Shown here: piece after piece, positions 20,547-51,504 of the stretch
How the letters are laid out: every line of letters begins with the position of its first letter
Position numbering within the stretch: the stretch's first letter is position 1
From: a virus
Direction: 5' to 3' (one strand)
Virus record (IMG/VR): IMGVR_UViG_3300045988_105372
Location: 51,462 to 115,461 of that record
Length of the DNA: 64,000 nucleotides
Program-made: the position numbers and the translations under genes
Notes under the pieces: model-generated
The model's database searches: none
What the model was told of the DNA's origin: nothing
The model's input: the letters and a program-made list of their open reading frames with translations, nothing else

Positions 20547-21356
20547 TTAGATAACCTTAAACATTGTAACATTCTCAGGAAGATTGTCCCAGTCTTTATA
20601 AGAATTAGTAAACCATACGTGATTAAAATTTTCTGACAGATTCTTTATACCCTTAGGATTTACCATATGAGTAACTGCGATATTCAAACGTTCCTTAGGA
20701 ACACCTAAAGTATTAAATGCTTTAGCAATACCACAAAAAGTGCCTCCACCATCACATAAATCATCAAGAATTAATAATGGTTTATCACTAATTATTTCAG
20801 GATTGTCTATTTTAATCTCTAAGATTCTTCCAGTAGTTAAATCTCGAACTTTACTACAAGTAATTGCTGTACGATTATATCTGAATTCATTTCTCTTTTC
20901 AGCTCCAGCATCTGGGAAAACTAATTGAAATTCTTTCCAAGTATTATTAGATGGATTCTTTTCAGCGTAAAGAGGCATGAATTTAACTCCGAATCTAGGA
21001 TCATAATAAACATCAGAATGAGGTTCTAAAATTTCAATAGTCTCTGCATTACAATTTTTTAATACATTTAAGACTATTTTTAAAGTGAATGGTCTATTGA
21101 AAACCATTACTCGATCCATTCTCATACTCATTAAGTAATAGATATTTATTTTATATAGAACTTCATGTCTATCAAGGATATCTAAAACTTGCATAAGTAT
21201 AAATAAGTCTTCAGCATTAGTAATTCTACATTGCACTAATACTTGCTCCTTATGGCTGAATTCTTCTAATGAAATTTGAACTTCCCCATCAGGGAATCTA
21301 GAGATAGAATACTTAATATCACTATCTTCTAAATGTACTAAATTTAATTGTTGCAT
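20547..21356 (-). CDS. ribose-phosphate pyrophosphokinase (Prs)-like phosphoribosyltransferase-fold protein; candidate ADP-ribose pyrophosphate synthetase (Adps) of NARP1
   Basis: PRPP/PRTase loop LLILDDLCDGGGTF; sits 2 genes from NAMPT-like gene. Confidence 0.55.
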   Translation of the reverse strand: MQQLNLVHLEDSDIKYSISRFPDGEVQISLEEFSHKEQVLVQCRITNAEDLFILMQVLDILDRHEVLYKINIYYLMSMRMDRVMVFNRPFTLKIVLNVLKNCNAETIEILEPHSDVYYDPRFGVKFMPLYAEKNPSNNTWKEFQLVFPDAGAEKRNEFRYNRTAITCSKVRDLTTGRILEIKIDNPEIISDKPLLILDDLCDGGGTFCGIAKAFNTLGVPKERLNIAVTHMVNPKGIKNLSENFNHVWFTNSYKDWDNLPENVTMFKVI

Positions 21357-21838
21357 AATTTATAAATATAAAGAGTTATTGTTGAATCATTAGCAAAAAG
21401 TTCTTGGAGCATAGGATAAACTACTCCGTCCCAATCTCCTCCTGCTAATCCACATCCTAATTTATAAGGAATGCCTATCTCTGTAATCTCGTTATCTTTA
21501 CAAAAGTCTTTTAAATCTAATAAAGCTTTTTTAAGAGCATCATAATCAGTATGCCTATTTTCAAAAGGAGCTACTGATTCAGTGAAAGAATATTCTCCAA
21601 ATAAATTAGCTACGAGATTAATAGGTTCATCTCCTGTTATACATACTTGACATTTCCCTAATAATTTTTTAGAATATTTAAAATATTTACAATAATTGGC
21701 ATATCGTGTATATACGCTATTCCATTTATTTTTAATAGCCTTAGCTATACCTGCCCCCATTACTCCTAAACAATTAGTTTGATGGGCTATAAGAGGTAAG
21801 TTTGATTGGAGTAAATCTCCATTAACAACTTCTATCAT
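21344..21838 (-). CDS. macro domain (ADP-ribose-binding/hydrolysing) protein (164 aa)
   Basis: IAHQTNCLGVMGAGIAKAI ... GIPYKLGCGLAGGDW macro-domain glycine-rich motifs. Confidence 0.6.
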   Translation of the reverse strand: MIEVVNGDLLQSNLPLIAHQTNCLGVMGAGIAKAIKNKWNSVYTRYANYCKYFKYSKKLLGKCQVCITGDEPINLVANLFGEYSFTESVAPFENRHTDYDALKKALLDLKDFCKDNEITEIGIPYKLGCGLAGGDWDGVVYPMLQELFANDSTITLYIYKLCNN

Positions 21839-23388
21839 ACTAATGTTGAATTTACACGTTCACGAATTTCAGAAAGAGAATATTCTCTTACTAATTCTCC
21901 ATCTACAAAGACTGTTTTAAGACAACCTTGCAGTTCTGCATCCTTGGTCTGCTGGTCATAAGCGACATACTTACCATCCTCTTTTTCAACTCTTATAAGA
22001 CCTTTGAGAGAGTTCTTTGTTCCATCATCAGTCTTTGGGTGCTTATAGATTTCTATAAGTTTACCATTAATGGTGCATGCGGTCGCTTTAACTGCGAAAC
22101 CCAAAGAATCTCTACTCTTAAACTGATAAGTATAAGATCCAATACCTAGAACAAGATTACAAGCTGCCATATGAGCGTTTTCCAATCTAGCATAGATATC
22201 ACGCTGACGCTCCAGAGTAATAGAATCTCCATAAAGCAATCCAACCTTGGTACTTGGATAACGATAGTCATTTACAGTAGTATTCCATCCAAAGATTTTT
22301 CCTAGCATATAATATGCTCCATAGTACTGACCTTCAGATACTTCTACATAATGATTTTCATCATCGTCCATAAATGGATTGAAATCACAGTAATACTTAC
22401 CTTCTTTCATAGCAGTATGATAGTGAGGATTTGTACGAAGACCACAAATAATGTCTACTGGATCACCACTATCAGGACGAATTACTACTCGACCAACACG
22501 TTTCATAATATCTGCCTTAAGCTTAGGCAAGAATTTCTCAACTACCTGCCAAAAATCCCAAGTATCAGATACTATTGAGATAATACCTGTTGGATATAAG
22601 TCATTAATAAGACGGCGGTATGTTTCAATCTCACCATCCTCACCTCCTGCGCACATTACTGAATGTTCCGAAGCCGGAACAGTTGCAGCTACAAGTTCTT
22701 CAGTAACATTTGCATTGTAATAATGTTCTACTGCTTCAATAGCAGGAATTGTTTCACTACCACAGAATGAAGTCATATGAGCCATACCGGAGATAATAGC
22801 AGCATCAAGTCCTGCCATACCTCTCATTGAGAAATCGTGACAAGAGAAACCTAGATTTACTTCCTCTGGGAATCCAGTCTTTCTAGCATGTTCCATAAGT
22901 CTCTTTTTATAGAGACGAGCACTTGTTGCAGAAGTACAAGGGAGCCATAGAGTACAACTAATTAAAGTTTCCAAGTAATTAGTCAACCAGAAGAAATCAG
23001 GAAGAGTGTTCTTAATAGTCATCATAGGTACTCTTATAGGACAGATAGAACCTTCAGGAAGAGCTTTAATTTCAATAGGAAGATACCCCAGATCATAAAG
23101 TTCTTCAATATGCTTTGTCCCAACCTGGTTAAGGTCTACAAAGTTACCTACACGATAAGCAAATTGCTTAATAGCTTCTTCCTTAGGAAGAGCAAACCAT
23201 TTGTTAAATTCCTCTATCAAATACTTCTTTACAAAGTACTGAATACCAAATACTACAGAACCTTCTGTAGCTTCTGGGAAGTAACGATTACTTCTAGGAG
23301 TCCAGTTACTATAGACCATTTGTGTACCCTCTGGGTACATACGATGATGACCAAGCTTGTAGCCATCAGTTGCATTAATAATTTCCAT
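21835..23388 (-). CDS. nadV: nicotinamide phosphoribosyltransferase (NAMPT/NadV) family protein; candidate nicotinamide ADPR transferase (Namat)
   Basis: 517 aa; N-terminal NATDGYKLGHH...YSNWTPRS and overall length typical of NAMPT family. Confidence 0.65.
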   Translation of the reverse strand: MEIINATDGYKLGHHRMYPEGTQMVYSNWTPRSNRYFPEATEGSVVFGIQYFVKKYLIEEFNKWFALPKEEAIKQFAYRVGNFVDLNQVGTKHIEELYDLGYLPIEIKALPEGSICPIRVPMMTIKNTLPDFFWLTNYLETLISCTLWLPCTSATSARLYKKRLMEHARKTGFPEEVNLGFSCHDFSMRGMAGLDAAIISGMAHMTSFCGSETIPAIEAVEHYYNANVTEELVAATVPASEHSVMCAGGEDGEIETYRRLINDLYPTGIISIVSDTWDFWQVVEKFLPKLKADIMKRVGRVVIRPDSGDPVDIICGLRTNPHYHTAMKEGKYYCDFNPFMDDDENHYVEVSEGQYYGAYYMLGKIFGWNTTVNDYRYPSTKVGLLYGDSITLERQRDIYARLENAHMAACNLVLGIGSYTYQFKSRDSLGFAVKATACTINGKLIEIYKHPKTDDGTKNSLKGLIRVEKEDGKYVAYDQQTKDAELQGCLKTVFVDGELVREYSLSEIRERVNSTLV

Positions 23389-23878
23389 TAATTGATTCTT
23401 TTAATGTTAAACCTATACTATATTTATAAAACACTTCAGTTATATAACTCTTAGTTTTTTTGTGGATTTTCATATGAGGCTGTTGTTTAAGCCACCATGT
23501 ATATTCTCTTCTAGGGTCAGCTCCATATGTTTTAGCTGCTGCTAAATAATCACATATAAGTTCTAGAACATATTTTTTAGGCATTTTAGCAGGAATTCCT
23601 CCATTATCTAAGGAATGTATCCAATATTCATAATGATGAGGATTTCTTCCTCTATGGTGAAGGAATGTTTGACTATATCCTAATATTCTACACTCATTCG
23701 CTAAAGAGCTCATTTTATCATCCCAATACTTAATAGCTCTTGAAAATTCTGTAAAACTAAATTTAGACAAATCATGAGTAATACCTTGCCAATATAATCC
23801 TATTTGAAAGCAATATTTAGCAACATAATACTTATGAGTTAAGATTCGCTTTATTAATTTCAACCAAACTAAGTTCAT
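23375..23878 (-). CDS. hypothetical protein (167 aa), His-rich patch HHRGRNPHHYEYW
   Basis: ORF track. Confidence 0.45.
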   Translation of the reverse strand: MNLVWLKLIKRILTHKYYVAKYCFQIGLYWQGITHDLSKFSFTEFSRAIKYWDDKMSSLANECRILGYSQTFLHHRGRNPHHYEYWIHSLDNGGIPAKMPKKYVLELICDYLAAAKTYGADPRREYTWWLKQQPHMKIHKKTKSYITEVFYKYSIGLTLKESINGNY

Positions 23879-24983: not shown

Positions 24984-25091
24984 TTAAATTAATAAATATT
25001 AGTAATGCTAATACAAAAATAGGGACTAATAAGATAAACTTACTAGTCCCTTTCTCCTTGCCATCAAAGGCTTCTACAATTTCTTTTAATG

Positions 25092-26370: not shown

Positions 26371-26740
26371 AAATTAAATAATAAGATTAAATAATTGGAG
26401 GCATGTATAATCTACAATACTGATTAGCATACCAAGTCCAACCCTTCTTAAATGCTTTTAAAGTTCTTTTTAAAATTTTCATCATAATAAATCAAATTTA
26501 AAGTTTAACTTATAAAATATCTAGGAGGAGAGTTTAAAAAATTAAGAATCCCAGGTAAATCACCCCTGTTAGAGACATGGTCTCTATTTTTATTATTTAG
26601 GATTCTATAGGAATGCAAAAAACCATCGAATCATTCCAGTTCGTAGGTTCTACGACACCTAATAGGCGAGTATGCATCGTTGAGAGGCACCCTATAAGTT
26701 ACGTTGCTCCTGTAACTAGTATTCTAGAGCTTTATCATAG

Positions 26741-26818
26741 TGTGAGATGTGGGAATCAAACCCACGCAAGCCTTCACATTGGAAGTGTGATGTGCGCCTT
26801 CAACTACACTAATCTCAC
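26741..26818 (-). tRNA. tRNA-Gly(UCC)
   Basis: manual cloverleaf: acceptor GTGAGAT/ATCTCAC, anticodon arm TCACA-CTTCCAA-TGTGA, T-arm GTGGG-TTTGATT-CCCAC. Confidence 0.6.
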
Positions 26819-26830
26819 ATTGTTTAATAG

Positions 26831-26904
26831 TGGAGCGTAGGAGATTCGAACTCCTAAGAATGCCTGCGTGCAAAGCAGGTGCTGACCATTTGAGCCGACG
26901 CCCC
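26831..26904 (-). tRNA. tRNA-Ala(UGC)
   Basis: acceptor GGGGCGT/ACGCTCC (G3:U70 present), anticodon arm CCTGC-TTTGCAC-GCAGG, T-arm TAGGAG-TTCGAAT-CTCCTA. Confidence 0.7.
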
Positions 26905-26914
26905 AAATTGGAGA

Positions 26915-27391
26915 TTACTCTCCAGTTAATTGTTTTATTTTAAGTTTAGCTTGTGTTAATTTATATATTAAATCAGATATAGTATTTTTATTATCTTTAA
27001 GCTGCTTTCTAAGACCTTTAATAGCTAATTTCATGCTATTAAAGTCTTTCAAATTATTTGCCATAGATTCTAATTCTCTAAAAGACTTAGTATCATCAAA
27101 TAAAGATATATTAACTTTAGCTCTTAACTCTCTAATTTTAAGATTCTGTTTCTCAATCTCATTTTCTAAAGACTGAATCTTATTATTTAAAGATTCTATA
27201 CCAAGTCCATTTTCTAATTCATCTATATAGGATTCTAATTCTCCGATTTTTTGTTCTAATCCAGCATAATGCTTTTTTCTTTCAGCATCATACTCTTTAA
27301 ACCTATTTATTTTGCTTTTTAAAACAGCTATAATAAAATCCTTTTTATCATAAAAGTTTGCGTCAGATTGATAATTAAAAGTTTTTTTCAT
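26915..27391 (-). CDS. coiled-coil protein (158 aa)
   Basis: ORF track; heptad-rich LE/IE sequence. Confidence 0.45.
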   Translation of the reverse strand: MKKTFNYQSDANFYDKKDFIIAVLKSKINRFKEYDAERKKHYAGLEQKIGELESYIDELENGLGIESLNNKIQSLENEIEKQNLKIRELRAKVNISLFDDTKSFRELESMANNLKDFNSMKLAIKGLRKQLKDNKNTISDLIYKLTQAKLKIKQLTGE

Positions 27392-27413
27392 ATTATTTAT
27401 TTTTTTTAATTAG

Positions 27414-27485
27414 TTGTGGGTATTGGACTCGAACCAATGACCGTTTGCTTATGAGACAAACAAGCTACCACTGCTACAACCCACG
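27414..27485 (-). tRNA. tRNA-Met(CAU) (C1:A72 mismatch)
   Basis: anticodon arm TTTGT-CTCATAA-GCAAA, T-arm ATTGG-TTCGAGT-CCAAT. Confidence 0.6.
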
Positions 27486-27494
27486 ATATTAAAG

Positions 27495-27566
27495 AGCTTC
27501 AAGTAGGATTTGAACCTACGACCCGCACTTTACAAGAATGCTGCACTACCACTGTGCTATTGAAGC
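27495..27566 (-). tRNA. tRNA-Thr(UGU)
   Basis: acceptor GCTTCAA/TTGAAGC, anticodon loop CTTGTAA, T-arm GTAGG-TTCAAAT-CCTAC. Confidence 0.65.
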
Positions 27567-27712
27567 TTAAATAAAGGCGAATATGGCATTAGACGGGCGA
27601 ACTATCGTGACCATATTCTAATAATACATTGAGCTATCAGGCATACTCGTGGATCGCCACCGCTACCTCTAACAACCGCCTAGTTAAATGCTAGGTCCTC
27701 TCCATTATTTGC

Positions 27713-27788
27713 GGAATATAAGGGACTCGAACCCTTAGTTTTACTAGAGTGACAGTCTAGTTCCCTTACCAACAGGGCTTAATACTCC
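27713..27788 (-). tRNA. tRNA-Asp(GUC)
   Basis: anticodon arm CTAGA-CTGTCAC-TCTAG, T-arm AAGGG-TTCGAGT-CCCTT, acceptor GGAGTAT/ATATTCC. Confidence 0.65.
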
Positions 27789-27799
27789 ATGTGTCTTTG

Positions 27800-27880
27800 C
27801 GCCTAGACTAGGATTCGAACCTAGGAACCTTTCGGGGCAAGTTAACAGCTTGCTGCCGTTGACCACTTGGCTATCTAGAC
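27800..27880 (-). tRNA. tRNA-Asn(GUU) with unusually long (11-nt, CCCGAAAGG mini-hairpin) variable region
   Basis: anticodon arm GCAAG-CTGTTAA-CTTGC, T-arm CTAGG-TTCGAAT-CCTAG, acceptor GTCTAGA/TCTAGGC. Confidence 0.5.
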
Positions 27881-31204: not shown

Positions 31205-32758
31205 TTATACATTTACATTGGTGTTTTCTACATCGCCATTAACGTTAACATTCTTATTAACCTTAGCATCAATGGTGTTAGCCTTCATAATGTCTGCCAT
31301 ATCTACACCTGTGGCATCTTTTACAATGTCACGAGTCTGCTTAATAATAGCAGGTACATTACCAGAAATACCAGAAGCCTCAGAACCATTAGTTCCATAA
31401 ACTGTCATATTGCTAATCTTACTCATAGGTTCAGCAATATACTTAGCCATATCAGGAAGAACTTTCTCATTAAGTTTAGAAAGCATGTCAATTACAGCAA
31501 TAGAGCCATACTTACTGTATGCTTCAGCCTTCTTCTGCATAGCCTCAGCTTCTGCAAGACCCTTAGCCTTCACACCTTCAGCTTCTGCCAAAAGTTTAGC
31601 TTTAGTACCTTCAGCTTCTGCAGTCAAGGTCTGTTGAGTAGCATATGCTTCAGCTTCACCCTTAGCACGAATACCTGCTGCCTCCTGCTCCTGAGAATAA
31701 CGATTAGCTTCAGCCTTAGCTTTTACAGCCTTAGCAGTTTGCTCTGCTTTATAAGCTTCAGCCTCAGCCTCACGCTTCTGCTTCTCCAAAGCAGCCTGAG
31801 CATCAATTTCTGTCTGATACTTGTCAGCATCAGCCTTAGCATTTACATCTGCAAGATACTCATTCTGCTTAATCTTAATCTTCTCCTCAGACAAGGTCTG
31901 TTCTTTACGAGTCTTCTCAATATCAGCATCTACAGTCTTGATATTAATAGTTTTCTGCTGCTCTTGCTGCTGAATTTCATATGCGGCATCAGATTCAGCC
32001 TTCTTAATATCAGATAATCTCTTCAGTTCGGCTCTCTTAATAGCTAATTCATTATTACGTTCAGCAATAATGGTGTCAGCCTTTACTCGTGCTTCATTAG
32101 CCTCATTGTCAGCCTCAGCCTGAGCCTTAGCTACATCTCTATCAGCATTAGCACGGGTAATCTTAGCATTCTTCTGAATAGCTGCTGTATTATCAGCTCC
32201 CAAATCACGGATCAAGCCTTTCTCATCAGTAATATTCTGAATATTGCAAGACAAAATCTCAAGACCTAACTTAGTCATATCAGGAGCTGCCTTCTTCTGA
32301 ATTTCATCAGAGAATGCATCTCTATCAGTGTTAATCTTAATCAAGTCAAGAGAACCTACTACTTCACGCATATTACCCTCCAAAGAATCTTTCACTTGAG
32401 CTGCAATCTGCACAGAATTCATATTCAAGAAGTTCTTAGCTGCAAGTCTAGTGCCTTCTGTATCAGGTTTTACCCTAACTTTACATACGGCATCTACCAT
32501 TACATCCAAGAAATCATGAGTAGGAACTGGTTGTGAAGTCTTAACATCAACTGTTACTTGACCAAGATATACTTTATCTAATCGTTCAAGTACAGGAATT
32601 TTTACTCCACCACCACCGATAAGTACTCGTGGCTCCTTACGAAAACCTGAAAGAATGTACGCCATCGAAGGAGGAGCTTTAACATACATTGTAGCAATAA
32701 TAACAAGCAGTACAATAATAACGACTGCGATAACACCAATAAGAACTAAATGTTCCAT
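31205..32758 (-). CDS. flotillin-like SPFH/band-7 domain protein with N-terminal TM helix and long Ala/Glu-rich coiled coil (517 aa)
   Basis: TM helix LVLIGVIAVVIIVLLVIIA, SPFH-like region, EAEA/KAKA coiled-coil repeats. Confidence 0.55.
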   Translation of the reverse strand: MEHLVLIGVIAVVIIVLLVIIATMYVKAPPSMAYILSGFRKEPRVLIGGGGVKIPVLERLDKVYLGQVTVDVKTSQPVPTHDFLDVMVDAVCKVRVKPDTEGTRLAAKNFLNMNSVQIAAQVKDSLEGNMREVVGSLDLIKINTDRDAFSDEIQKKAAPDMTKLGLEILSCNIQNITDEKGLIRDLGADNTAAIQKNAKITRANADRDVAKAQAEADNEANEARVKADTIIAERNNELAIKRAELKRLSDIKKAESDAAYEIQQQEQQKTINIKTVDADIEKTRKEQTLSEEKIKIKQNEYLADVNAKADADKYQTEIDAQAALEKQKREAEAEAYKAEQTAKAVKAKAEANRYSQEQEAAGIRAKGEAEAYATQQTLTAEAEGTKAKLLAEAEGVKAKGLAEAEAMQKKAEAYSKYGSIAVIDMLSKLNEKVLPDMAKYIAEPMSKISNMTVYGTNGSEASGISGNVPAIIKQTRDIVKDATGVDMADIMKANTIDAKVNKNVNVNGDVENTNVNV

Positions 32759-32836: not shown

Positions 32837-33991
32837 TTATAATTCGTAATTTACAAGACCTGTAGCTTTACTTGTAGAATAGCAACTATTAATTATATAT
32901 ATTCTAATATTCCCATAATCAGTCATAGTTACTACATATTTTTCTTTAATACTTACCATCAATATACGATCATCCTCAAAATAATCTCCAGGTTCCAGAT
33001 ATTTTAACTCTTTATCCTCAGTAGTGGAACCATAATCCTCATTGAACTTAGTAGACCATTCATTATAGAATTTTCTTTCTTCACTAGTATATTTCTCCCA
33101 ATCTTTCTTTTTAATTTCTTTAAACTTATAAAAAGCTTTTAATATATTCTTTATATTTTCAGGAGTAAATTTCAAGTCACAATGTCTGATTTGTACTTCT
33201 CTATACAAATAAGTAAATCTAGAGAATTCAATATTAAAAGTTTCTTTAATATTAGGAAGAGCTTTCACTCCATGAATATTAATTTCAGTTGCTATAGCTT
33301 TAATTAAGTCTATAGTAATAATATTCATAGAATGAGTTAACTCTATAACCTTCTCTATAGCAGTTTTATCTTCCAAGATATCATTAAGAATCTCTCTAGT
33401 AACTTCCTCAGAAAGATTACTGAAAGACTTTTTATATCTTATTCTAGAAGGTCTACCAAGAAGATTTGGGTCTACATTTAACTCATTAGTAGTAAGTAAA
33501 AATACCTTACGATAAATAGAGTTATAAGTACCATCCATGAAAGAAAGAACATCAGAAGAATTTTTAAATTCTTTCTCATATTCATCAAAGAAGAAGATAC
33601 AGTCAAAATCAATAGATGTAGATAAATATTTTATTAATTTACTATTAGTATCAACCCCCATTGATTGCACTAAGATTACAGGAAGCTGTAAACGATTACA
33701 AAGTTCCTTTGCAACGACCGTCTTACCAGTTCCTTTGATTCCATCTAGCAGAACACCTAAATTTCCTGTAGTGTTCTCATATGTCTTTAAGACATAATCA
33801 ATAAATTTTTGGTTTAGACCATACAGTTTGTAATCAAACGTAAAAGACTCAGCGATTTTACTTAAGTAAAATCCAGTCATTGAGACTTTTACTTCATAAA
33901 TACCTTTCGGTAATCCTTCAGGATGAGATACTGTTGTTGCACTACCCTGACTAAAAACGTTGCCATCTTGCAACCAAATTTGTTTACCCAT
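32837..33991 (-). CDS. AAA+ ATPase (384 aa)
   Basis: Walker A GIKGTGKT, Walker B IFFFDEYEK. Confidence 0.6.
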   Translation of the reverse strand: MGKQIWLQDGNVFSQGSATTVSHPEGLPKGIYEVKVSMTGFYLSKIAESFTFDYKLYGLNQKFIDYVLKTYENTTGNLGVLLDGIKGTGKTVVAKELCNRLQLPVILVQSMGVDTNSKLIKYLSTSIDFDCIFFFDEYEKEFKNSSDVLSFMDGTYNSIYRKVFLLTTNELNVDPNLLGRPSRIRYKKSFSNLSEEVTREILNDILEDKTAIEKVIELTHSMNIITIDLIKAIATEINIHGVKALPNIKETFNIEFSRFTYLYREVQIRHCDLKFTPENIKNILKAFYKFKEIKKKDWEKYTSEERKFYNEWSTKFNEDYGSTTEDKELKYLEPGDYFEDDRILMVSIKEKYVVTMTDYGNIRIYIINSCYSTSKATGLVNYEL

Positions 33992-34182: not shown

Positions 34183-34300
34183 AGTGGAGCATTGGAGAGT
34201 CGAACTCCAGTCTTGCATATTTGCATCAAAACGTTCTTACAGCATAGGTTTTAAAGACTATCCTTGTCTGTTAGGGTTGACAAGATTAGCATTGCCAACT
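34183..34300 (-). ncRNA. tRNA-like element: perfect T-arm TGGAG-TTCGACT-CTCCA and 3' acceptor-like ATGCTCCA but no canonical D/anticodon arms
   Basis: manual inspection; lies in 650-nt non-coding region. Confidence 0.25.
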
Positions 34301-34646
34301 TCCACCACTCTGTTCCTAAAGTATACAGAGAACTAATAAAGAAATAAAAGAATAATGCACCTTTCCGTTCCCAAGCAAGTGCTGCTCGGTTTCTTAGGCT
34401 GCAATAGCGTAAGAAACAGGAGTCATATTGATAACTCTAGCGATTATTGTTTTGTTGTCTCTCCAACTGTCTTGCTGTGTTTCTTATCTCCTATACAATC
34501 AAAACCACGAATGCCCCAATTTAAAAGAGTCCTAAGTTAGAACTCTTTTATAAATTAGTGTCTACCACGTAAATAATTGTAATTATTATACCAATCATCT
34601 GGATCTATTCTATCTTCATTATCCATAATTTAAAACTTAATTAATG

Positions 34647-45668: not shown

Positions 45669-45797
45669 CTGTTTTTGAGTTTTTGTAAGTCCTCCGACTT
45701 ATTAAAGTTTTCGCACAATTTTGATAAGAGCTCTACTTTCACAAGCAAAACTCTTTTATTTTTAACAACTTATAAATTAAAATAATGATAGAAAAAG

Positions 45798-45869
45798 GAA
45801 ATGCGGACAGATTTGAACTGCCAATCTTCTACTCTACGATAGACGCTCTAGCTATTGAGCTACGCATTT
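45798..45869 (-). tRNA. tRNA-like gene with 4-bp anticodon stem and 8-nt loop UCGUAGAG (canonical acceptor AAATGCG/CGCATTT, D-arm GCTC/GAGC, T-arm GGCAG-TTCAAAT-CTGTC)
   Basis: manual folding. Confidence 0.4.
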
Positions 45870-45896
45870 CTATATATACTAGTATTGCTATATAGC

Positions 45897-45937
45897 CTTA
45901 TTTAAAAACTCATACTACTTTCGCAAGCAGTATGAGT
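45897..45937 (-). terminator. hairpin (9-bp stem ACTCATACT/AGTATGAGT, loop ACTTTCGCAAGC) followed by U-run in minus sense
   Basis: perfect 9-bp inverted repeat; loop shares TACTTTCRCAAGCA with hairpin at 45740-45770. Confidence 0.4.
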
Positions 45938-46013
45938 TAATGTGTAAGTCATTTTATTGACTTATCAACTCAACTACAAGAAATTCATCAATTTTCACAA
46001 ATTAATAATTAAT

Positions 46014-46093
46014 ATGTCGCTTAGACGGGATTCGAACCCGTAAGACCATTCCTGGTCAAGGGATTTTCCTACTACACTTGCTTTTATACAAGC
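46014..46093 (-). tRNA. tRNA-like gene with canonical T-arm ACGGG-TTCGAAT-CCCGT but aberrant D/anticodon region (loop TTGACCA)
   Basis: manual folding. Confidence 0.3.
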
Positions 46094-46096
46094 TAA

Positions 46097-46201
46097 CTTA
46101 AATAAAGGGATTCGAACCCTTAATCCTCAAGAGATATTTAATGACGACTTTAGAGGCGCTTCCGTCAATCTGCTGCCGTATACCAATTCCGCCATATTTA
46201 A
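46097..46201 (-). tRNA. 105-nt tRNA-like gene (acceptor TTAAATA/TATTTAA, T-arm AAGGG-TTCGAAT-CCCTT) with ~30 extra nt in the body (contains CUCUAAAG)
   Basis: manual folding. Confidence 0.3.
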
Positions 46202-46694
46202 GTTATTGTAGTCTGGACTATTTTATTACCTTATCAATTAACTTCGAAGTAAGGAATTAGGTTTTACCTCTCTCAATGAGCGTCTCCTTTTTTACATAAT
46301 GCATTATTATTATAACCTTATTACTAAGGATGAAGTCTAAACCATTCCTTTTAATTAACTTAGGTATCTCCTCTATAGTCTCTACACATTTATGCTGTAA
46401 CACTCCAATTTACATTTAAGATAGATTAGCGTTCTATCACAATTTAGCTCGTCACCACCAAAACCTATGTTACCATAAGTGAGGCTTCTGTCGCAAGTTA
46501 ATTAGATTTCTGAATACTGCTTCTATAATCATTACTCTGCTTCTTACACAGATGCTAACCTTTTTACAATTAGTAATTAACTTGTTTAATTAGGGAGATT
46601 CTACTTCTATTATTTCTAATAGAGCACTCAAATTCACCATTACTGGTGTTCCAAAAGTCCCTCGTGTATCCCAGTTTCACCACTAAGCGATAAA

Positions 46695-46726
46695 GCAACT
46701 AATTATCTGCTAGTTGCCAACAATAT
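46695..46726 (-). repeat. 32-nt repeat GCAACTAATTATCTGCTAGTTGCCAACAATAT (hairpin GCAACTA/TAGTTGC); second copy at 49157-49188
   Basis: identical by eye in both copies; precedes tRNA-Arg at 49 kb and a degenerate tRNA-Gln-like remnant here. Confidence 0.7.
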
Positions 46727-46757
46727 TTATTTTATAAATCCTATAACTATTATGGTA

Positions 46758-47117
46758 TTACAGTTGTTTTAACATATTTGTAGCTACATATAATGAAATA
46801 TCCACAGTTGTATGAATATCATCATTTAATTTTAAGATATATGTATTATTTTCATCATTCTTTCTAGTTATCTCAGATATGTATTTATGATTTATTAAAA
46901 ATCCTTGTGTTGCAAGAATAAAATTAATACATAAAACACGTGAAATATTTTTTAATGAACAACACACAATAATACTATTGCCATGAACATCTATTATAGT
47001 ACTATATTTACCAGATGTTTTTATACATACAATGTCATTTATGTTTATTTGTCTGTACTCTCGTCCCTTAAACACTAAAAATGTATCAGAGTCAATCTGT
47101 ATTGTTTTTATTTCCAT
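46758..47117 (-). CDS. hypothetical protein (119 aa)
   Basis: ORF track. Confidence 0.45.
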   Translation of the reverse strand: MEIKTIQIDSDTFLVFKGREYRQININDIVCIKTSGKYSTIIDVHGNSIIVCCSLKNISRVLCINFILATQGFLINHKYISEITRKNDENNTYILKLNDDIHTTVDISLYVATNMLKQL

Positions 47118-47122
47118 ATCTC

Positions 47123-47512
47123 TTAACCCATAATAAAACGAGCATCTACAATATTTTCAGGATGATGAATAGTTTTAGTTAATCCTATCATCGCCCATTT
47201 CACAATATCAGAATGTTTAACTCCACTTTTAAGTTCATGGTAAAACATTAAATCATAAGCTTCTCCACTTTTAAAAGTTACTTTGATTTTAAATGTAGGC
47301 TTTTCATCATTTCTAATAAGTTCGTCCATTTCTTCATCAGTTACCATGTAACTGAACAGAGGATTAGAAAGATGTTCTTTTTTGTACCTCTTTTCAAGTT
47401 CAGCTAAATTTAACTTTGCACACTTGAGTACATGTTTACAACCAAATTTCTTAGCACTTTCTATTTGTGCTATTAAATTGGTTTTACTAATAAAATAATC
47501 TTGTCTTGTCAT
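47123..47512 (-). CDS. hypothetical protein (129 aa)
   Basis: ORF track. Confidence 0.45.
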   Translation of the reverse strand: MTRQDYFISKTNLIAQIESAKKFGCKHVLKCAKLNLAELEKRYKKEHLSNPLFSYMVTDEEMDELIRNDEKPTFKIKVTFKSGEAYDLMFYHELKSGVKHSDIVKWAMIGLTKTIHHPENIVDARFIMG

Positions 47513-47703
47513 AATTTATCTATAATTAATGTGTTAATAATCTATTTAAATAATAGGCGATTTTCACTGGTTATATTTAAACTATTCCATTGTCCTCAGC
47601 TATCTAACGTTCTTTCTCTTTTTAACCCAAATGATTAATTTTAAGGTAATTACGCTATTTAATAGAGTCGCTGAGAGTTGTTTAGTACCTATTTATTAAT
47701 TAG

Positions 47704-47776
47704 TAGAGGATGACAGAGTTGAACTGCCTATTAGGGAGTCAAAGTCCCTCGTGTGAAACCGTTACACTAATCCTCC
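47704..47776 (-). tRNA. tRNA-Gln(UUG)
   Basis: acceptor GGAGGAT/ATCCTCT, anticodon arm AGGGA-CTTTGAC-TCCCT, T-arm GGCAG-TTCAACT-CTGTC. Confidence 0.65.
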
Positions 47777-47826
47777 GAATAAAATACTATTCTCACGAAC
47801 CATATTTTATATTACAAGTATGAATA

Positions 47827-47917
47827 AAGCGGAGAAAGAAGGATTCGAACCTTCGAGCCATGTAATATGACTAACACCTTAGCAGGGTGCCACTTTCGAC
47901 CACTCAGTCATTTCTCC
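47827..47917 (-). tRNA. tRNA-Ser(GCU), type II with long variable arm
   Basis: acceptor GGAGAAA/TTTCTCC, anticodon arm GCACC-CTGCTAA-GGTGT, variable arm ~18 nt, T-arm GAAGG-TTCGAAT-CCTTC. Confidence 0.7.
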
Positions 47918-47922
47918 AATAA

Positions 47923-47950
47923 AGCTTCCTATCTTCACAGACAAGAAGCC
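47923..47950 (-). promoter_or_regulatory. hairpin with conserved loop CTATCTTCACAGAC (family 1) immediately 5' of tRNA-Ser
   Basis: stem GCTTC/GAAGC; loop identical to 48115-48128. Confidence 0.5.
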
Positions 47951-48029
47951 TAACAACTCTTTAACGTTATAAAGTCCGCTGACTTTATATTTTAAACATT
48001 AATCGTATTAGTTTTTTAAATATGGAAGA

Positions 48030-48103
48030 GTAGCACTAGCGATGCTCGAAATCGCCTTTGGATCTTGAAAGAATCCCGTCCTAACCAGCTAGACGATAGT
48101 GCC
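48030..48103 (-). tRNA. tRNA-Glu(UUC)
   Basis: anticodon arm GGATT-CTTTCAA-GATCC, T-arm GCGAT-TTCGAGC-ATCGC, acceptor GGCACTA/TAGTGCT. Confidence 0.65.
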
Positions 48104-48108
48104 AAGTA

Positions 48109-48136
48109 GATTCTCTATCTTCACAGACTGAGAATC
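48109..48136 (-). promoter_or_regulatory. hairpin with conserved loop CTATCTTCACAGAC (family 1) immediately 5' of tRNA-Glu; different stem (GATTCTC/GAGAATC)
   Basis: loop identical to 47929-47942; stems not homologous but complementary. Confidence 0.5.
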
Positions 48137-48178
48137 TCGTGTATTACAAATGAATACTTTTAATAAATTAAAAATTAA

Positions 48179-48252
48179 TGGTGCTCCCTGACAGTACTGA
48201 CCTGTCTTCCCGAAATTAAAAGTTTCGTGCTTCACCTTAAAGCTTAGAGAGC
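48179..48252 (-). tRNA. tRNA-Lys(UUU), CCA encoded, atypical T-loop GUCAGUA
   Basis: acceptor GCTCTCT/AGGGAGC-A-CCA, D-arm GCTT/AAGC, anticodon arm CGAAA-CTTTTAA-TTTCG. Confidence 0.55.
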
Positions 48253-48296
48253 TAATTTATAATCTTATTTTGCATAGAATTTTATTCTTGTATATA

Positions 48297-48371
48297 GTGG
48301 AGATACGTGGAATCGAACCACAATCTCGGGATTTTCAGTCCCGCGCTCTGACCTTCTGAGCTATATCTCCA
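48297..48371 (-). tRNA. tRNA-Phe(GAA)
   Basis: acceptor GGAGATA/TATCTCC, D-arm GCTC/GAGC, anticodon arm CGGGA-CTGAAAA-TCCCG, T-arm TGTGG-TTCGATT-CCACG. Confidence 0.75.
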
Positions 48372-48478
48372 TAGCCCACATTTCTATAAAGGAGAATAGT
48401 GGTAACACCTACCTATACTAATAAATTTATTAGTCAGGATTTATCCAAACACACTAACAATATATCAAATTAAATTTG

Positions 48479-48561
48479 TACGGTAGAAAGGATTCGAACC
48501 AATGACCTTCTCGAAATGACCTATTATAAAAGAGATGCTCTAACCACTGAGCTACTACCGT
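48479..48561 (-). tRNA. tRNA-like gene (83 nt) with canonical acceptor/D-arm but anticodon stem TCTC/GAGA enclosing 19 nt (contains direct repeat AGGTCATT x2)
   Basis: manual folding; T-arm region ATTGGTTCGAATCCTTT identical to 48992..49072. Confidence 0.4.
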
Positions 48562-48616
48562 AAGTACTAGTTTATATCGGAAAACTAGTAAAACGTTAAC
48601 ACATTATTATGGAAAC

Positions 48617-48967
48617 TTAAAAGCCAAATGAAAACATGGTATTTGCGGAAGTACTAAGAGTTACATAAGGAATTTTATTTCTTACTGTAATAAAGACAAT
48701 AAAGCGTCTTCCTGTATTAACCTCTCCACAATTATGGATTTCTACTCCATCTTTCATTTCAGAAGAGTATATTTTTAATACCATTTTACCAAACTTACTA
48801 TTATTAAAAGTAATAGTTTTTCTAGCTTCATTATATACTACTGAAGTTTTAATGTAAAATGGGTCACTCCATTCACCATCTTGATAAACAGTGATAGAAC
48901 CATAATTAAACGCATGAGCTATTGTAGTTAATACAATAAAACTCATTAATAAAATAATCTTTTTCAT
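48617..48967 (-). CDS. secreted protein with signal peptide (start trimmed to MKKIILLMSFIVLTTIAHA)
   Basis: ORF track 48617..49015; upstream 16 codons would overlap tRNA-like gene. Confidence 0.45.
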   Translation of the reverse strand: MKKIILLMSFIVLTTIAHAFNYGSITVYQDGEWSDPFYIKTSVVYNEARKTITFNNSKFGKMVLKIYSSEMKDGVEIHNCGEVNTGRRFIVFITVRNKIPYVTLSTSANTMFSFGF

Positions 48968-48991
48968 ATTACTCAATCTTTTTAATGTTAG

Positions 48992-49072
48992 TACGGAGTA
49001 AAGGATTCGAACCAATATAACCTCTCTATGAATTGTGGAAATGAGGTGCTCTAGCCATTAAGCTAACTCCGT
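48992..49072 (-). tRNA. tRNA-like gene (81 nt) with anticodon stem ACCTC/GAGGT enclosing 20 nt; paralog of 48479..48561
   Basis: manual folding. Confidence 0.4.
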
Positions 49073-49077
49073 ATATG

Positions 49078-49152
49078 TGGTCCTAATGCGGCTCGAACGC
49101 ATAACATCGAATTTAGAAGATTCGTACTCTAATCCAGTTGAGTTATAGGACC
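49078..49152 (-). tRNA. tRNA-Arg(UCU)
   Basis: acceptor GGTCCTA/TAGGACC, D-arm ACTC/GAGT, anticodon arm CGAAT-CTTCTAA-ATTCG, T-arm ATGCG-TTCGAGC-CGCAT. Confidence 0.75.
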
Positions 49153-51408: not shown

Positions 51409-51504
51409 TTTTTTAAACTATTTAATTATTAATAATGTGCCATCACCTTTCTCATTAAGAGTCTGCTACTTTGGATATGTAGGATGTAGGTTTACACTAG
51501 AGCT

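Follow-up and report, generated by a model that had tools for sequence, protein, structure and literature searches.

We have identified three contiguous genes on the minus strand of a 64,000-nt stretch of viral DNA (the window; positions 51,462 to 115,461 of the IMG/VR virus record IMGVR_UViG_3300045988_105372) that very probably constitute a NARP1-AP operon in an uncultured phage of the human gut. NARP1-AP stands for nicotinamide adenine dinucleotide (NAD+) reconstitution pathway 1 with associated phosphatase. In NARP1, Adps, a homologue of phosphoribosyl pyrophosphate (PRPP) synthetase (Prs), pyrophosphorylates ADP-ribose (ADPR), and Namat, a homologue of Nampt, joins the resulting ADPR pyrophosphate (ADPR-PP) to nicotinamide, giving NAD+; the pathway overcomes the Thoeris, DSR1/2, SIR2-HerA, and SEFIR defenses (Osterman et al. 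2024, 10.1101/2024.02.11.579819). A macro-domain gene lies within the operon in 15% of NARP1 phages, and this form has been named NARP1-AP (Osterman et al., 10.64898/2026.01.28.702374; hereafter the 2026 preprint). The pathway is already known from the other phages of that preprint; the copy in the window is new and divergent, with the gene order Namat-Adpp-Adps. Our assignment draws on sequence, motifs, phylogeny, fold, and gene context, and we infer the enzymatic steps and the anti-defense role from published homologues. A first-pass annotation of the window, made from the letters alone, had described a contiguous, co-oriented three-gene module at 20547-23388 and had quoted the loop LLILDDLCDGGGTF in its Prs-like protein; our open reading frame (ORF) listing places the genes there in the order Namat, macro, Adps, with the loop present as quoted. 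It had also presented the macro domain as an unusual third component, a view overtaken by the 2026 preprint, in which this component is already published as the Adpp of NARP1-AP. The three predicted genes are as follows.

21835..23388, minus strand: Namat (nicotinamide ADP-ribose transferase), 517 aa; matches PF04095 NAPRTase (E = 1.6e-34) and PF18127 NAMPT_N
21344..21838, minus strand: Adpp, predicted macro-domain ADP-ribose-1''-phosphate phosphatase, 164 aa; matches PF01661 Macro (E = 6e-9) and phrog_335
20547..21356, minus strand: Adps (ADP-ribose pyrophosphate synthetase), Prs fold, 269 aa; matches phrog_619 (E = 3e-60)

Namat and Adps are parted by the 164-aa macro gene alone. The Namat and macro genes share an ATGA (4-nt overlap), and the macro and Adps genes overlap by 13 nt; since start and stop codons overlap at all junctions, co-translation of the three proteins from one transcript is suggested. 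Among 80 Namat (NARP1) loci sampled from IMG/VR, the source of all locus counts given here, 78 have an Adps gene within 4 kb of Namat. A comparable linkage has been published: phage Adps form a clade separate from cellular Prs, and a Namat gene is close by in 97% of that clade (Osterman et al. 2024).

The same two families could, however, form a classical salvage pair of the NARP2-like or NadV type, in which the Prs-like protein makes PRPP, the NAMPT-like protein makes nicotinamide mononucleotide (NMN), a host or phage NMN adenylyltransferase completes NAD+, and the macro protein is unrelated. Family libraries do not help here, as Pfam, PHROGs, and NCBIfam part neither Adps from Prs nor Namat from Nampt: phrog_619, phrog_448, and NF006629 match the two kinds alike, with E. 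coli Prs also matching phrog_619 and T4-like NadV also matching phrog_448 and NF006629. It also speaks for a salvage pair that the characterized Namat still has, in vitro, about half the PRPP activity of Nampt (Lan et al. 2026, PMC12774641). We have therefore used motif, tree, and pairwise-score tests instead.

For the NAMPT-like protein, the best matches among solved structures are 9w5x and 9w5w, both SPbetaL1 Namat (474 bits, E = 4e-141), as compared to about 205 bits for human NAMPT entries. Scored against individual proteins, it reaches 474 bits with the SPbetaL1 and FADO Namats and 358 with that of Gary, but only 162-199 with T4-like NadV; the corresponding identities are 48-49%, 41-43%, and 30-31%. 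In the structure of SPbetaL1 Namat, an adenine selectivity clamp is formed by the beta1-beta2 loop, with Arg40, and by a helix of the form GS-X-phi-X-phi-X-phi-TRD in which X is aromatic (Lan et al. 2026). Both clamp elements can be recognized in the window protein, as can the catalytic motifs and the two catalytic or substrate loops of the Prs-like protein.

22108..22140, minus strand: Namat selectivity-clamp helix motif GSYTYQFKSRD, aa 417-427, fitting the published GS-X-phi-X-phi-X-phi-TRD
23260..23301, minus strand: Namat selectivity-clamp loop TPRSNRYFPEATEG, with Arg35 aligned to SPbetaL1 Arg40
22654..22668, minus strand: Namat catalytic EHSVM motif with His242, invariant in all aligned Namat and Nampt
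22459-22482, minus strand: Namat IRPDSGDP, with Arg304 and Asp306 matching SPbetaL1 Arg306 and Asp308
22744..22761, minus strand: Namat GSETIP, with Glu212 (codon 22753-22755) aligned at the nicotinamide-binding Asp (SPbetaL1 Asp215)
20823..20855, minus strand: Adps catalytic flexible loop SKVRDLTTGRI, with Lys169 aligned to SPbetaL1 Adps Lys162
20736..20777, minus strand: Adps ribose-phosphate loop LLILDDLCDGGGTF, aa 194-207

The X positions of the clamp helix are Y, Y, and F, all aromatic, with T at phi1 and Q at phi2. It departs from the published form at two places, both conservatively, with K at phi3 and SRD for TRD; these K and S variants are frequent among the 80 sampled relatives, and the exact motif GSYTYQFKSRD occurs in 7 of them. 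In the same alignment columns, validated Namats have GSFTYQY(N/V)TRD, whereas T4-like NadV proteins have GGGLLQ(E/Q)(V/L)(T/D)RD (e.g. GGGLLQEVTRD). The clamp loop is longer than the ESRGGKF loop of T4-like NadV, as published for Namat. Phe186, His242, Arg304, and Asp306 are conserved relative to the SPbetaL1 core (Phe189, the catalytic His, Arg306, and Asp308), and an R306 mutant of SPbetaL1 Namat is inactive. Compared with the Bacillus enzymes, the window protein carries a 40-aa insert (aa 317-356); a similar insert is present in Gary Namat, and both follow the IRPDSGDP motif. Judged by alignment, the NAMPT-like protein carries a Namat-type clamp, not Nampt-type sequence, which argues against a salvage pair.

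The Prs-like protein gives weak, sub-threshold Pfam matches to Pribosyltran and Pribosyltran_N, and it falls far under the cut-offs of all Prs equivalog models, to which E. coli Prs scores 423-533; for TIGR01251, a Prs model with a cut-off of 113, the window protein scores 63.6 bits, validated Adps 96-106, and E. coli Prs 423. By phmmer it scores 59-78 bits to the SPbetaL1, FADO, and Gary Adps, as compared to 27-39 for the top solved Prs and 22-27 for other Prs. A small, distance-based neighbor-joining tree of 10 Adps-like proteins and four Prs (E. coli, Bacillus subtilis, Burkholderia pseudomallei, and Sulfolobus solfataricus) sets the Adps-like clade, with the window protein and the validated SPbetaL1, FADO, and Gary Adps in it, apart from the four Prs in 200 of 200 bootstraps. 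Lys169 in the SKVRD segment aligns with K162 in the HKQRN of SPbetaL1, and K162A abolishes NAD+ synthesis (Osterman et al. 2024). The ribose-phosphate loop of Prs has the form DD-x-x-D-T-[AG]-G-T; its first Thr is missing in all validated Adps and in the window protein, being replaced by Gly in the window and Gary proteins, Phe in SPbetaL1, and Tyr in FADO. The missing Thr may leave room for the ADP moiety.

Together with the clamp, both the clade placement and the low TIGR01251 score count against a classical salvage pair, as does the finding that SPbetaL1 Adps, of the same clade, gave no product in a ribose-5-phosphate/PRPP assay (Osterman et al. 2024). Also against it, a non-exhaustive scan of the remaining ORFs, taking the 20 largest, showed no NMN adenylyltransferase or Nudix protein; the window shows only 64 kb of a phage genome of roughly 170 kb. 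We consider a salvage pair very improbable. The first-pass annotation had proposed a NARP1-type Adps/Namat pair and had named the retention of Prs- and Nampt-specific residues as what would speak against it. No such retention is seen, and the Namat clamp, the Adps clade placement, and the homology of the macro protein to Gary Adpp all support the proposal.

That homology extends over 98% of the length of the macro protein, which is 38% identical to Gary Adpp (KNV71_gp137; E = 2e-28); both proteins belong to phrog_335, annotated 'phosphatase' (E = 1e-38 for the window protein). The gene also falls within the operational definition used in the 2026 preprint, namely a PF01661, PF14519, or PF20016 protein within two genes of an Adps/Namat pair. 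Gary Adpp dephosphorylates ADPR-1''-phosphate, the product of the RES-domain defense aRES, in vitro; all three Gary genes are required to defeat aRES, and Adpp is needed specifically against it (10.64898/2026.01.28.702374). Among the roles that the first-pass annotation had offered for the macro domain, feeding the pathway is the one with direct precedent, in the conversion of ADPR-1''-phosphate to ADPR by Gary Adpp.

A rival reading, that the macro protein is mainly a DarG/TARG1-like hydrolase reversing ADP-ribosylation of DNA, RNA, or protein by host toxins, and that its place in the operon reflects ADPR recycling or coincidence, deserves separate weighing. By both sequence and fold, its top matches among solved structures include DarG and TARG1. 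An AlphaFold model of the protein (predicted local distance difference test, pLDDT, 85) gives template modeling (TM) scores of 0.74-0.81 to the DarG, Poa1p, and TARG1 macrodomains (0.79-0.81 to DarG and 0.78-0.79 to Poa1p), and an Adpp-family profile matches BT1257, TARG1, DarG, SCO6735, and Poa1p, the last with E of 3e-9 to 8e-9. Its best NCBIfam match is likewise DarG, but at 63.6 bits this is far under the 250-bit cut-off, and Gary Adpp, validated against aRES as described above, gives the same weak match. The PTKKHW segment of Mycobacterium tuberculosis DarG, which we take to hold the DarG/TARG1 catalytic Lys, falls opposite FTESV of the macro protein in our alignment, with no Lys there, and at only 164 aa the protein lacks the DarG C-terminal domain; the missing Lys and the small size would both argue against a DarG-type role. 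Homologues of the macro protein recur in or next to Adps/Namat pairs, both in two jumbo phages and in four IMG/VR lineages that are distant and independent; this recurrence across unrelated lineages also tells against coincidence. As the main role of the protein, such hydrolysis is, in our estimate, distinctly unlikely, though it may occur as a side activity.

Within the macrodomain fold, we compared the protein to yeast Poa1p using the mutant names in PDB entries and the verified Poa1p sequence. His19 and Asn22 of the macro protein are the counterparts of Poa1p His23 and Asn26, and the G-x-G-I-A loop is also conserved. Alignment columns that do not vary among Gary Adpp, the homologues in jumbo phages, and the window protein are H19, N22, G28, G30-I-A, G128, G130, G133, and W136; they stand in here for the positions at which mutations inactivated Gary Adpp.

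If the NARP1-AP assignment is right, the operon would act as follows. A host defense enzyme would cleave NAD+ in the course of infection. Where the products are ADPR and nicotinamide, Adps would transfer pyrophosphate from ATP to the 1'' position of ADPR, yielding ADPR-PP, and Namat would then let nicotinamide displace the pyrophosphate of ADPR-PP to form NAD+ directly, its adenine-binding clamp making it favor ADPR-PP over PRPP. Where the defense has a RES domain, as in aRES, the product would be ADPR-1''-phosphate, unusable by Adps, and Adpp would first strip the 1''-phosphate to supply Adps with ADPR.

Several observations weigh against this assignment. The window Adps shares only 26-29% identity with validated Adps, as compared to 23% with E. 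coli Prs, so that its placement rests on the tree and the profile scores; no residue signature for Adps has been published, and our PDB search returned no solved Adps structure. Where Namat and Nampt have a nicotinamide-binding Asp, the window Namat has Glu212, a conservative change at a position where D215A lowers SPbetaL1 Namat activity about 8-fold (PMC12774641). We had considered Glu212 an oddity of the window protein but dropped this idea, since Glu is common in the clade: it is present in 40 of the 61 sampled Namat relatives with a readable motif, and by that measure it is a clade trait. For the macro protein, S30 and F152, named in the Poa1p mutant structures, are not conserved (nor are they in Gary Adpp), and by sequence and fold it is as close to the DarG, TARG1, and BT1257 macrodomains as to Poa1p. 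Finally, Namat is lost or split in close relatives, so the module would be dispensable in some settings.

These losses take two forms. In MT835492, a relative at about 95% identity, an in-frame deletion of 1.96 kb that lies between two copies of GCAAGGT (L002:7819-8004, where L numbers denote loci in related sequences) joins aa 1-32 of the neighboring DUF5662 protein to the last 29 aa of Namat, leaving Adpp and Adps without Namat. In another relative (L039:6001-6495), aa 1-63 of the DUF5662 protein are fused to aa 150-269 of Adps. The two deletions could be natural module loss or assembly artefacts. In five relatives, an HNH endonuclease gene, or what is left of one, instead splits Namat just past the catalytic EHSV motif, and the downstream half restarts from its own ATG.

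L010:7222-7998, also L015 and L020: HNH homing-endonuclease ORF with an internal TAG
L019/L029:7222-7478: remnant of the HNH ORF

A second insertion site lies just past the clamp helix (L029:7994-9210 and L030:7691-7884). We considered group I or II introns in the Namat genes of these relatives and rejected them: Rfam at its gathering threshold gave tRNAs only, and reading of the loci showed a free-standing HNH ORF and a split gene. With such deletions and HNH insertions among its relatives, the module might be suspected of being a decaying or non-functional remnant in the window phage as well. All window ORFs are nonetheless full length, with catalytic and clamp motifs intact, and the same intact arrangement is found in eight IMG/VR relatives with Namat identities of 91-100%; decay in the window phage is scarcely credible.

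One relative shows a different rearrangement. At L004:5380-7365 (MT836666), a sequence of about 205 aa resembling an AAA ATPase is in frame with Namat, which follows the window protein only as far as aa 434 and misses about 55 residues before the conserved C-terminal tail; no macro gene lies between Namat and Adps at this locus.

In sister lineages of the window phage, the slot of the macro gene is filled by a predicted HAD-type phosphatase of about 140 aa. Its D.DNT, T, K, and LLDDRAGL motifs are invariant, and it matches phrog_1238 with no Pfam match. This gene lies between Namat and Adps in 29 of the 80 sampled loci, in both gene orders and never alongside a macro gene; the words HAD and haloacid are missing from the main text of the 2026 preprint.

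L022:8569-9000, L024:8398-8835, L132:1723-2127, L136:2604-3023, L140:3567-3986, and others: HAD-like genes of IMG/VR relatives

A fourth gene adjoins the operon in the window.

23375..23878, minus strand: DUF5662 protein, 167 aa; overlaps the start of Namat by 14 nt at its 3' end

It is possible, with considerable uncertainty, that this gene is an accessory fourth member of the operon. A bolder proposal, which we regard as doubtful, is that NARP1 is a four-gene module whose accessory positions hold an exchangeable adaptor, with the middle slot alternating between the macro and the HAD-type phosphatase and the DUF5662 protein acting as an HD-like metal-dependent phosphohydrolase that makes usable ADPR from another dead-end ADPR derivative (e.g. 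ADPR-cyclic phosphate or a cyclic-ADPR signal).

More distant versions of the module are seen in NAD islands of jumbo phages from IMG/VR (L060:316-6680, on a 345-kb contig, and L062:1672-6730, on a 412-kb contig). Their genes encode a PncA-like isochorismatase (seen in L060), a radical SAM protein, Adps, a divergent Namat-like protein, a 180-aa ORF (seen in L060), Adpp, a 135-aa ORF, and NadE. In the Namat-like protein, the clamp helix contains an insert of 9 aa, and the nicotinamide-binding Asp is missing. Jumbo-phage Adpp is 52-55% identical to the window Adpp, as compared to 26-31% for Adps and Namat.

The block as a whole is found again in >15 IMG/VR contigs (94-181 kb) at 85-100% protein identity; because of this recurrence, we conclude that it is no chance arrangement of ORFs. 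The closest public record is a 121-kb “Bacteriophage sp.” contig from human faeces, without annotation. Outside the lineage, the best match of the Prs-like protein is to a Prevotella Lak megaphage, and our guess at the host, made by indirect reasoning only, is Bacteroidota. The GC content is about 30% across the whole window, which also encodes a DnaB-like helicase, an SF2 helicase, an RNase H, a PDDEXK protein, 13 tRNAs, and a tmRNA; the window thus resembles the replication or early region of a large phage genome. A strong terminator-like hairpin (13-bp stem and T run; window 25021-25051, minus strand) lies upstream of the block. Since it is the only convincing one on that strand from 27000 to 18500, with a weak one inside the block, the NARP1-AP genes may share a long transcript (>5 kb) beginning just downstream of it. 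A promoter scan confined to the sigma-70 type was uninformative, with 47 matches as compared to 52 expected by chance.

Two other features of the window may be recorded. A 517-aa protein with SPFH/Band 7 and flotillin domains is encoded at 31205-32758 on the minus strand, adjoined by an AAA ATPase gene (32837-33991). The 13 tRNA genes form two clusters and the phage tmRNA has the tag ARVINMTPVSYAIAA (window 26740-27880, 45797-49152, and 34184-34517, minus strand). The anticodon of the tRNA at 45797-45869 could not be read, and one tRNA-Tyr was called with the anticodon ATA; these tRNA findings, together with the in-frame TAG in the HNH gene of a relative, might hint at stop-codon reassignment.

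The present work would extend NARP1-AP to an abundant lineage of uncultured human-gut phages with genomes of roughly 100-180 kb, and by implication the gut host would use depletion of NAD+ as a defense, with RES-type cleavage to ADPR-1''-phosphate among its means. Taken alone, the module adds little to what has been published. Of more value is the comparative picture, in which exchange of macro and HAD genes in one slot and repeated loss or splitting of Namat offer leads on how NAD+ rebuilding may be tailored to different defense chemistries. Were the exchangeable-adaptor proposal true, hosts would destroy NAD+ by several chemistries, each with a matching phage feed-in enzyme.

The nearest known systems share parts of this design. 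Yeast Poa1p (PDB 6LFQ) and the DarG/TARG1 clade belong to the same macrodomain subclass as the window Adpp, which differs in standing alone, at 164 aa, in an NAD+ operon and in not conserving Poa1p S30 and F152. The T4-like NadV Nampt of NARP2 (the KVP40 family, represented here by Matisse and D479) shares with the window Namat the NAPRTase/NAMPT fold and the catalytic His, Arg, and Asp; apart from its lower identity, it differs in its short loop, its other clamp helix, its lack of an adjacent Adps, and its route via PRPP and NMN. RyDEP, a RyR-domain glycosidase in mycobacteriophage NARP1 operons, turns cyclic ADPR signals into ADPR (10.64898/2026.05.28.727677). The design is the same, an accessory NARP1 enzyme that turns an unusable ADPR derivative into linear ADPR. 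RyDEP has another fold and another substrate, and we saw no RyR-domain gene in the window operon. The NARP1 operons of the Bacillus phages SPbetaL1 and FADO and of coliphage Bas63 have Adps and Namat only, without a phosphatase. SPbetaL1 and FADO Namats have the same clamp and catalytic residues as the window protein, and their Adps fall in the same clade; these two-gene operons are blocked by aRES (10.64898/2026.01.28.702374). Closest in content is the NARP1-AP of Vibrio phage Gary (Adps-Adpp-Namat), a tight operon of the same three families with the macro gene in the central position and full-length identities to the window proteins of 29% for Adps, 38% for Adpp, and 41% for Namat. Gary is a Vibrio demerecvirus, whereas the window phage is an uncultured human-gut phage of about 30% GC, and its operon differs from that of Gary in its reversed order (Namat-Adpp-Adps), in the DUF5662 gene that overlaps it upstream, and in the Glu at the nicotinamide-binding Asp position.

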